A program made the translations under genes and the position numbers. Positions 6,884 through 8,586 of a stretch of DNA of 8,586 nt are shown here, piece after piece. The notes under the pieces were generated by a model that was not told where the DNA came from, did no database searches, and saw only the letters and a program-made list of their open reading frames with translations. Numbering within the stretch: position 1 is the stretch's first letter; the number at the start of each line of letters is the position of its first letter. The stretch is from a virus (lineage: Monodnaviria > Loebvirae > Hofneiviricota > Faserviricetes > Tubulavirales > Inoviridae): the IMG/VR virus record IMGVR_UViG_2690316267_000001. The stretch is one strand, 5' to 3'.

Positions 6884-7330
6884 ATGGGCAACAATGAGCA
6901 TGAAGTTATGGCGGACAAACAGAGAGCAGAACGTATAAAAAAGGCAATTCTGGAACACTCGACTTATGAAGAACTGGCCGAGAAGACTGGCATTAGCGTA
7001 AGTACGCTGGTCAGGATAGCGTCCGGCAAAACTGAACCTAAATTCAGCGATATAATTCAGATAGCTAAAATTACTGGCGCAGATTTGAACACCTTAGCTT
7101 ATGGCTATGCTCTTGATGTTAAAGAAGAAGCTACTGAGCGAAAGCTGATAACTTCTGCGGACGGATATACTGATGAAGAAACCACGAACGCGCATAATTT
7201 CATCGTGTGGAACATCAGAACACTGGAGAAGCAAGATATTCTGGCACTTGCAAGGCAAGTTTCTGCATTAAGTTCATATACTTACAGTACAAAAATGTTT
7301 ATGAAAAAAGCATTGTCAGGCGAAGAGTAA
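6884..7330 (+). CDS. XRE-family helix-turn-helix transcriptional regulator (148 aa), candidate phage repressor
   Basis: N-terminal HTH-like segment ..STYEELAEKTGISVSTLVRIASGKTEP..; GGAG 8 nt upstream of the ATG; divergent from gII as in repressor-carrying inoviruses; C-terminal ~70 aa unassigned. Confidence 0.75.
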   Translation: MGNNEHEVMADKQRAERIKKAILEHSTYEELAEKTGISVSTLVRIASGKTEPKFSDIIQIAKITGADLNTLAYGYALDVKEEATERKLITSADGYTDEETTNAHNFIVWNIRTLEKQDILALARQVSALSSYTYSTKMFMKKALSGEE

Positions 7331-7358
7331 AAAGCTAGCGGTCTCAGGAATGAGACTA

Positions 7359-7393
7359 ACGTGCAGTATTACCAACACTGCACGTTCTTTATT
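7359..7393 (+). terminator. rho-independent terminator after the HTH regulator gene
   Basis: Perfect 9-bp stem ACGTGCAGT / ACTGCACGT (7359-7367 with 7377-7385), 9-nt loop, followed by TCTTTATT; a second small hairpin GTCTCA-GGAA-TGAGAC at 7341-7356. Confidence 0.6.
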
Positions 7394-7428
7394 GCGCGAA
7401 TTTTGAACAGTGAAAAAGGATCAAAAGG

Positions 7429-7851
7429 ATGAGTAGAAATAACGAAACAAGCGGCGTTGAACTGGTTGTCGTGGGCATATTTGCTTTCTGTCTGGCAGTT
7501 GTTGCCTGGCTAATGAAAACTTTCGATGTTGAATGGCAAACAGCTCTGGAAACTGCGCCTAGCCTGATAGTCTGGCTGCTTGTTGTTGGGGCGGGGATCT
7601 TTTTCGGGATCAAAATGGAAACAGGTCTTGTTCGCTGGGGTGCTCCACTGGCGATTGCCCTTCTGATTCCGGTATTCAAACCAATCCTTAAGGAAGCTGC
7701 CGGAGTACGTGAAACGGGTGGATTGGTTTTCGATGATATGGTTTCGTGGTATGGAACTGGCTGGGGAATGTCGTTGATGTTTTTCGGAATTCTTATCATC
7801 GGATACGGGCTGCTTTATTGGTGGCACAGAAGAAATTCATATCACTGGTAA
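7429..7851 (+). CDS. small integral membrane protein (140 aa, about 4 predicted TM helices), function unknown
   Basis: Four hydrophobic stretches (LVVVGIFAFCLAVVAWL, LIVWLLVVGAGIFFGI, APLAIALLIPVF, MSLMFFGILIIGYGLLYWW) separated by charged loops; AAGGA 7 nt upstream of the ATG. The overlapping minus-strand ORFs are Pro/Ser/Thr-rich, as expected for antisense of a membrane-protein gene. Confidence 0.65.
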   Translation: MSRNNETSGVELVVVGIFAFCLAVVAWLMKTFDVEWQTALETAPSLIVWLLVVGAGIFFGIKMETGLVRWGAPLAIALLIPVFKPILKEAAGVRETGGLVFDDMVSWYGTGWGMSLMFFGILIIGYGLLYWWHRRNSYHW

Positions 7852-7855
7852 TTTC

Positions 7856-7877
7856 AAACCGTGGGAAACCACGGTTT
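7856..7877 (+). terminator. stem-loop after the membrane-protein gene (9-bp stem AAACCGTGG / CCACGGTTT, GAAA loop), weak terminator candidate
   Basis: Direct inspection; begins 5 nt after the stop codon; no strong U-tract beyond the stem. Confidence 0.35.
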
Positions 7878-7937
7878 AATAAGAGGAAACTGAACCCTAT
7901 CAGTTCCACAATGGAAAAATTGGGTAGTGACTCCAAC

Positions 7938-8441
7938 TTACTGATAGTGTTTTATGTTCAGATAATGCCCGATGACCTTGTCATGCAGCTCCACCGATTT
8001 TGAGAACGACAGCGACTTCCGTCCCAGCCTTGCCAGATGTTGTCTCAGATTCAGATTATGTCGCTCAATGCGCTGAGTGTAACGCTTGCTGATAACGTGC
8101 AGCTTTCCCTTCAGGCGTGATTCATACAGCGGCCAGCCATCCGTCATCCATACCACGACCTCAAAGGCCGACAGCAGGCTCAGAAGACGCTCCAGTGTGG
8201 CCAGAGTGCGTTCACCGAAAACGTGCGCCACAACTGTCCTCCGTATCCTGTCATACGCGTAAAACAGCCAGCGCTGACGTGATTTAGCACCGACGTAGCC
8301 CCACTGTTCGTCCATTTCCGCGCAGACGATGACGTCACTGCCCGGCTGTATGCGCGAGGTTACCGACTGCGGCCTGAGTTTTTTAAATGGCGGAAAATCG
8401 TGTTGAGGCCAACGCCCATAATGCGGGCGGTTGCCCGGCAT
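7938..8441 (-). CDS. insB: IS1 InsB (transposase catalytic part; expressed as InsAB' fusion by -1 frameshift)
   Basis: Translation [59 protein letters not shown].. matches IS1 InsB from memory. Confidence 0.9.
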
Positions 8442-8586
8442 CCAACGCCATTCATGGCCATATCAATGATTTTCTGGTGCGTACCGGGTTGAGAAGCGGT
8501 GTAAGTGAACTGCAGTTGCCATGTTTTACGGCAGTGAGAGCAGAGATAGCGCTGATGTCCGGCAGTGCTTTTGCCGTTACGCACCA
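8360..8586 (-). CDS. insA: IS1 InsA (partial at window edge; N-terminus continues at 49..1 if the sequence is circular)
   Basis: Translation ..[73 protein letters not shown] matches IS1 InsA; the track's initial M is an internal GTG (Val). Confidence 0.9.

Follow-up and report, generated by a model that had tools for sequence, protein, structure and literature searches.

The 8,586-bp stretch of DNA analysed here (the window) consists of 7,818 bp of filamentous phage DNA (nt 105–7922) bounded by IS1 sequence and, by sequence comparison with its relatives, is a derivative that lacks the attachment site (attP) by which its lineage is defined. Very probably, IS1 inserted first and a later IS1-driven event, either an adjacent deletion or recombination between two IS1 copies, removed 1,267 bp that included an accessory gene (ORF369) and attP. 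The original prediction had offered an adjacent deletion or IS1-copy recombination as the explanation for a missing target duplication, and this is borne out by 1,259 bp of additional DNA in an IS-free relative and by a sister genome in which the same IS1 is a simple insertion flanked by an 8-bp target duplication. Mechanisms of this class are textbook material, and the phage belongs to a known family; in the present case the ancestral form is in hand as well.

IS1 junctions and the DNA missing between them

Two pieces of IS1 border the phage DNA, both on the minus strand. The IRR-side piece (nt 7923–8586, 664 bp) runs inward from the IRR terminus (GGTAGTGACTCCAACTTACTGAT) and contains insB'. 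It is identical to the complete IS1 found at 7923–8690 of contig CYBP01000067.1 (L005) and to both IS1 copies in L003, from a sister genome, GCA_977064715.1 (L003/L004). The IRL-terminal piece (nt 1–104, 104 bp) ends ...TTGGCAGCATCACC at nt 104, and either completes the same IS1, on a circle, or is the end of a second copy in direct orientation. When the two pieces are joined they form an intact 768-bp IS1 with two 23-bp terminal repeats and the ends GGTGATGCTGCCAACTTACTGAT and GGTAGTGACTCCAACTTACTGAT, a 91-aa InsA frame, an InsB' frame and an A6C slippery site (TTTAAAAAACTC) for the -1 frameshift, although counting them as a single IS1 presupposes that the window is circular. The Pfam families Zn_ribbon_InsA, HTH_Tnp_IS1 and DDE_Tnp_IS1 match the identical IS1 copies in L003 and L005. 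Both joints with phage DNA coincide exactly with IS1 terminal nucleotides, which fits expectation for events mediated by transposase or by IS homology; the left joint reads ...CAGCATCACC (IS1 terminus) followed directly by GGATGGCAGAATC (phage).

Simple insertion of IS1 normally produces a target duplication of 8–9 bp. The 9 bp abutting the exact IS1 termini, GAAAAATTG (nt 7914–7922) and GGATGGCAG (nt 105–113), are unrelated to each other. Their sequences are just as first described, and no other phasing produces a repeat of 8–9 bp, the longest shared word within 15 bp of each junction being ATGG. The absence of a repeat is, by itself, statistically unremarkable; its significance comes from the usual duplication of the target by IS1 and from the 1,259 bp that separate the two flanks in relatives. 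It reflects the history of this IS1 copy, not IS1 family membership, and in L003/L004 an identical IS1 occupies this site and is flanked by an 8-bp duplication, AAAAATTG.

A megablast search of nt 105–7922 against complete E. coli genomes returned one near-identical match, SCPM-O-B-12142 (NZ_CP144928.1; L001), which is IS-free and differs from the window by one mismatch and one single-base indel over 7,818 bp. Its prophage consists of two tandem 9,078-bp units between hipA and the yneL/ydeT side, the dif locus. Alignment of the IS1 flanks to IS-free relatives had been proposed in the original prediction, which named as its refutation a relative that is contiguous across nt 7922 and nt 105 and has a mis-phased duplication. 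In L001 the flanks are non-contiguous: nt 7922 corresponds to L001 4741 and nt 105 to L001 6001, with 1,259 bp of phage DNA between these breakpoints. Decay of a duplication by point mutation, or its mis-phasing, is a general possibility of the sort listed in PMC11708052, but it is hardly credible here, given the separation of the flanks in L001 and the genuine 8-bp duplication that survives intact in L003. Missing target duplications are typically the outcome of recombination between IS copies or of adjacent deletion (PMC11708052 and its references 14–15).

The 1,259-bp segment starts with 36 bp of upstream sequence that precedes ORF369 (L001 4778–5887), a 369-aa accessory ORF with no significant match in Pfam or PADLOC and a match only to phrog_17621, a group without known function. 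Then come a 24-nt inverted repeat resembling a terminator hairpin (L001 5913–5936 and 5949–5972), a dif-like attP on the minus strand (L001 5960–5992; GGTGCGCATAA-TGTACGACTCG-TTATGTTGAAA), and 8 further bp. The XerC arm of attP agrees with dif at 11/11 positions and the XerD arm at 9/11, and the spacer is 11 nt long. The earlier suggestion that phage DNA was lost was therefore correct, but the loss is not merely intergenic, as had been supposed, since it takes in ORF369, the hairpin and attP. The GC content of the segment is 34.5%, against 41.8% for the remaining phage. In the window, no dif-like site was detected at up to 9 mismatches, nor was an XerC arm with its spacer when up to 3 mismatches were allowed. 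In L001 the same dif-like site as in attP borders chromosomal DNA at the hipA end of the array, and at the other array end, as seen in L004 and L006–L008, a perfect dif (GGTGCGCATAATGTATATTATGTTAAAT) adjoins phage position 105 minus 8 bp. The attP overlaps the 24-nt inverted repeat, the opposite arm of which bears a second XerD-like motif, TTATGCTAAAG (L001 5913–5992); this overlap within the lost segment recalls the folded, CTXphi-like attP that has been proposed for YpfPhi.

A simple insertion followed by a second IS1 event

Further relatives were found by look-up of the 192-aa product of a frameshifted gene III. One of them, the complete chromosome GCA_977064715.1 (L003/L004), matches the window without a single mismatch in the phage part or in IS1. 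Its IS1 is a simple insertion, reading ...ATGG AAAAATTG, then IS1, then AAAAATTG TGCTGC..., with an 8-bp duplication; ORF369 and attP are both present, and the 9,853-bp unit occurs twice, in tandem, at dif. The L001 and L003/L004 prophages each lie between hipA and yneL/ydeT as two tandem units with a perfect attL (GGTGCGCATAATGTATATTATGTTAAAT). The octamer AAAAATTG is present on both sides of IS1 in L003/L004 and is single in IS-free L001 (4734–4741), so that nt 7915–7922 of the window represent the surviving copy of the duplication. Between the IRL end of the L003 IS1 and position 105 there are 1,267 bp, identical to L001 4734–6000 (AAAAATTG plus 4742–6000), in other words the second duplicate copy plus the 1,259 bp. 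Subtracting these from the unit (9,853 - 1,267) leaves 8,586, exactly the length of the window.

The window is tied on sequence grounds to the lineage of L002–L008 by a gene III deletion, a G at nt 4945 and an identical 7922/7923 junction. In the junction comparison the 7922/7923 joint was identical in L002–L007, and the IMG/VR contig L002 and the Logan contigs L006–L008 all have the IS1 junction, the gene III frameshift and G4945. At position 105, L002–L004 and L006–L008 retain attP or dif. An exact-pattern scan for the right junction gave one IMG/VR match (L002) and none in genome or metagenome contigs, and BLAST of the whole junction against complete E. coli genomes returned no record with even the 7922/7923 joint.

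The first step, of which the product is preserved in GCA_977064715.1 as a tandem array at dif, was an ordinary IS1 transposition 71 bp downstream of the gene for a 140-aa protein and 36 bp upstream of ORF369, duplicating the 8-bp target AAAAATTG. In the second step the IRL end of IS1 became joined to GGATGGCAG, 1,267 bp away. The joint itself is present in the sequence, and two routes to it can be envisaged. One would be intramolecular replicative transposition in deletion mode into GGATGGCAG, the 'adjacent deletion' of IS1, where a circle of IS1 and nt 105–7922 would be one of the two products. In the other, a second IS1 in direct orientation would have inserted at the GGATGGCAG site and IS1 x IS1 homologous recombination would have followed. 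Either route would remove the second copy of AAAAATTG, ORF369, the terminator-like hairpin and the whole of attP, and with the second AAAAATTG copy gone the remaining IS1 would be without a flanking duplication. Since the products of both routes would be identical in sequence, and since no contig with IS1 at nt 105–113 and attP beyond it (the two-IS intermediate) was found among viral, genome and metagenome contigs or in the relatives' assemblies, we infer the mechanism of the second step only to the level of these two routes. A degenerate pattern covering the left joint of the window and the joint expected of a simple insertion found no match in viral, genome or metagenome contigs, and look-up of an 82-aa ORF for long assemblies with IS1 at position 105 found none.

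In the ancestor, the sequence now at the new joint (nt 105–113) was separated from the IRL end of IS1 by 1,267 bp and lay 8 bp past the XerC arm of attP, and GGATGGCAG is presumed to be the target of the second IS1 event. A role for XerCD in the deletion was considered and rejected, as the deletion ends 8 bp beyond the XerC arm and does not fall within the site. The unchanged right junction, the joint at the IS1 terminal base and the contiguity of the lost DNA with IS1 together make up the signature of an adjacent deletion, and they fit a second IS1 insertion followed by IS1 x IS1 recombination equally well. The classical work on IS1-mediated adjacent deletion is reportedly that of Reif and Saedler in 1975. 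Shared with that process are one ancestral IS junction, the joining of the other IS terminus to formerly distal DNA, the loss of a segment contiguous with the IS, and the absence of any remaining target duplication. What differs is that the retained product carries a phage replication module and could survive as an autonomous circle, and that here adjacent deletion is inseparable from IS1 x IS1 recombination by sequence alone.

Immediately to the right of the ancestral 8-bp target, the sequence TGCTGCAAACAACTTACT (L001 4742–4759; absent from the window) agrees with the IS1 IRL core (TGCTGC-CAACTTACT) except for 3 inserted bp. It is the best match to an IS1 end in the 9-kb unit and lies precisely where IS1 inserted. 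It offers at most a weak, post hoc hint that the target was chosen for its likeness to an IS1 end, and the motif was not accepted as the cause of target choice, being statistically insecure (equal scores in 67/200 shuffles). A literature search on homology at IS1 hot spots found nothing relevant.

Gene content and affiliation of the phage

The inovirus core set is complete, comprising genes II, V, VIII, III (frameshifted), VI, I/Zot and IV. These genes and an 82-aa ORF are on the minus strand, with a repressor gene and the gene for the 140-aa protein divergently arranged on the plus strand. A gene II/X-family replication initiator (nt 5660–6712; Phage_CRI, G2P_X_C) is followed by a gene V-type ssDNA-binding protein (nt 5331–5648), the major coat protein, gene VIII (nt 4875–5117), the gene III attachment protein (nt 3585–4828), a DUF5455 protein in the position of gene VI (nt 3244–3585), a gene I/Zot-type assembly ATPase (nt 2149–3243; from the L001 match and Pfam) and a 421-aa gene IV-type secretin (nt 876–2141; from the annotation of the matching L001 and Pfam Secretin families). 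The 82-aa ORF (nt 477–725, minus strand) has no assigned function, and its position is conserved in relatives. It gave a marginal PADLOC match to JetB/DUF2398 (E = 2.5e-4, 60 residues of a 420-position profile) that is probably spurious. On the plus strand are an HTH_3/CI-like repressor in the RstR position (nt 6884–7330) and the 140-aa protein (nt 7429–7851; phrog_4174, no assigned function), which is the last phage gene before IS1.

Downstream of gene IV and the 82-aa ORF, the window retains an intergenic region (nt 105–476, minus strand). As viral-strand ssDNA this 372-nt stretch folds much better than shuffled controls (MFE -60.2 kcal/mol, z = -3.6). It may represent a packaging signal or origin, on what would be the viral strand. 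The original prediction had raised the possibility that origin or packaging functions were lost along with the missing DNA; no evidence for such a loss was seen, and the structured intergenic DNA downstream of gene IV has been kept. On the two-step history given above, the 8,586-bp unit would keep its replication, regulation and morphogenesis genes together with this structured region, and would no longer be able to use XerCD/dif.

Gene III carries a 1-bp deletion at nt 4369/4370 (AAGAATAG to AAGATAG) that divides it into products of 192 and 157 aa. The frameshift is common to L002–L008 and 108 collection blocks contain an index entry for the 192-aa product, which argues for a real and widespread lineage marker rather than a sequencing error. 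The prophage is probably unable to make infectious particles. The sole substitution relative to IS-free L001, G instead of A at nt 4945, falls in the major coat protein gene, and the G is common to L002 and every IS1-bearing relative checked.

The phage is a filamentous prophage of the YpfPhi/CUS-1 type, which normally integrates at chromosomal dif by way of a dif-like attP. For YpfPhi and CUS-1, integration at dif is XerCD-dependent, rebuilds a perfect dif on one side and gives tandem arrays with imperfect dif sites between the units; variable ORFs at the prophage extremity and occasional extrachromosomal forms have also been described (PMC4266046). Inovirus gene order, a divergent repressor module, integration at dif and tandem arrays are shared with YpfPhi of Yersinia pestis and CUS-1 of E. 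coli O18:K1:H7 (PMC4266046), whereas the copy in the window has no attP or terminal ORF, has acquired IS1 and shows a frameshift in gene III. The commonest E. coli relatives are only about 84% identical to it in DNA sequence, and the likeness to YpfPhi and CUS-1 is one of description, not of reference sequences. The INPHARED phage collection held no close relative, the only match being that of gene I to phage I2-2 (77%). No entry in the plasmid collection spans 80% or more of the phage; circular 'plasmids' of 7.9–9.6 kb that are related to it do exist (H44, H46).

Three E. coli prophage remnants at dif (L011, L017 and L018) have large internal deletions and have kept ORF369, the 140-aa gene and the 82-aa ORF, with their morphogenesis genes lost or truncated, a pattern that, at the sequence level, shows recurrent decay of the element in place. 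In L016, a second, unrelated inovirus-like gene set (Rep_trans, DUF2523, Zot and secretin; 10700–19200) directly follows the phage on its dif side, so that two different filamentous prophages are stacked at one dif. An ORF369-bearing relative in GCA_010718915.1 (L012) is flanked by genes for a Ribonuc_L-PSP protein and a DUF29 protein in place of hipA/yneL; presumably the phage lies near dif in another species there, or has integrated elsewhere.

Probable source contig and possible topologies of the derivative

The window is identical (0 mismatches) to bases 1–8586 of CYBP01000067.1 (GCA_001285805.1; L005 is its reverse), a 21.6-kb contig that is probably the source of the window. ORF369 and attP are absent from this contig. 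Its IS1 is complete (7923–8690) and is followed by ydcA, cybB, gapC, aldA, ydcF and hrpA, the joint between IS1 and the chromosome being inside ydcA at the equivalent of L009 3500 in an IS-free strain. At the contig end, bases 1–104 form the tip of another IS1 copy in the same orientation. As the contig is written, then, two direct IS1 copies flank the segment, on a short-read path through a 768-bp repeat. The joint of IS1 with GGATGGCAG is present in this one other assembly and was absent from the scans of viral, genome and metagenome contigs; as the contig is probably the source of the window, it does not provide independent confirmation of the joint. Because the outer flank of the complete IS1 is ydcA and not phage, the contig calls for one or more additional events associated with IS1, or for a join made in scaffolding.

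The window starts 104 bp inside IS1, at the same phase as the contig end, and stops just before those 104 bp recur (8587–8690). This recurrence looks like a k-1 contig overhang with repeat-based trimming of the contig, rather than proof of a circle, and the window may never have been one. This apparent trimming, and the passage of a short-read contig through the 768-bp repeat, raise the question of an assembly or curation artefact, in which the IS1–GGATGGCAG joint or the circularity arose from collapse of the IS1 repeat or trimming of the 104-bp repeat, and the real phage keeps ORF369 and attP. This is very improbable. The joint is exactly at the terminal base of IS1 and continues for 104 bp of IS1, the form of a genuine transposition joint; repeat collapse cannot make a novel junction between an IS terminus and unique sequence; and ORF369 and attP would have to be skipped precisely. 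An artefact could account for the circularity but not for the joint. The more general warning is that IS copies at both ends of a phage-sized segment can mimic a circular genome with a direct terminal repeat.

The unit is either a plasmid-like replicative form or chromosomal, lying between two direct IS1 copies as a cointegrate or Tn9-like composite in ydcA. In a short-read assembly graph, a chromosomal IS1-phage-IS1 arrangement would look no different from a free circle together with a separate ydcA::IS1. Two direct IS1 copies bracketing a segment are the product of IS1 replicon fusion or of composite transposition of the Tn9 type, and fusion of an 8,586-bp circle with the chromosome through IS1 would generate the chromosomal IS1-phage-IS1 structure. 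A composite in ydcA would predict IS1 IRR followed by TGTACGGCA-GGCGGCAAAT, the rest of ydcA, while either this composite or a separate ydcA::IS1 would show IRR (…GGAGTCACTACC) followed by TGTACGGCAGGCGGCAAAT. In common with Tn9-type composites and IS1 cointegrates, CYBP01000067.1 has two direct IS1 copies around a 7.8-kb segment next to a chromosomal gene; it differs in that what the IS1 copies enclose is a phage genome capable of replication instead of a resistance gene, and in that the outer flank of the second IS1, where an 8–9 bp duplication of ydcA would be expected, is beyond the contig. In the IS26 translocatable unit, one IS copy and adjacent DNA form a circle that re-enters a replicon next to, or via, another IS copy. 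The resemblance of an IS1 unit to this is by analogy only, as the IS family and the transposase chemistry are different.

The ydcA flank also bears on an unlikely alternative, in which the two IS1 copies are separate chromosomal copies, each a simple insertion of its own, and nothing was deleted at the 105 joint. The copy at nt 105 would have its own GGATGGCAG duplication with attL/dif beyond, its outer side reading GGATGGCAG-TTACCATT-dif/attP (IS1 IRR joined to GGATGGCAG-TTACCATTGGTGCGC), and an inversion, arising replicatively or by recombination with an oppositely oriented IS1 some 100 kb distant, would have brought ydcA next to the copy at nt 7923. The complete IS1 at 7923 of the contig is indeed followed by ydcA and cybB in an inversion-type orientation, and since the contig stops 104 bp into the IS1 at nt 105, the outer flank of that copy is unseen. 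At least two independent extra events would be needed, however (a second insertion and an inversion of about 100 kb), which is less parsimonious, and the contig is without ORF369 and attP. Such an inversion would flip DNA next to dif, and what is known of the dif activity zone suggests that this is harmful. A cointegrate or composite, in contrast, explains all three joints by one deletion and one IS1 fusion.

Across E. coli lineages, IS1 occurs at three or more positions in the gapC-cybB-ydcA interval (L009 2400–3600; L010; H98–H105, H109–H114), namely between gapC and cybB, about 50 bp upstream of the ydcA site in L005, and at the L005 site itself, and the interval may be a local hot spot for IS1. 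Among complete E. coli genomes none had IS1 at the exact L005 ydcA site, only at nearby sites.

On the preferred reading, insertion of IS1 and a later IS1-driven loss of ORF369 and attP, both the ancestor and the derivative are known, and together they show how an IS can remove the integration site of an Xer-dependent prophage. It is conceivable, though doubtful, that the phage, now without attP, uses its resident IS1 as a substitute integration module, entering ydcA as a cointegrate and able to leave as an IS1-bearing circle. If true, this inovirus would have exchanged site-specific Xer integration for integration driven by transposase or by homology. With attP lost, the element is maintained differently: no longer at dif, but as an episome or through IS-mediated insertion elsewhere.
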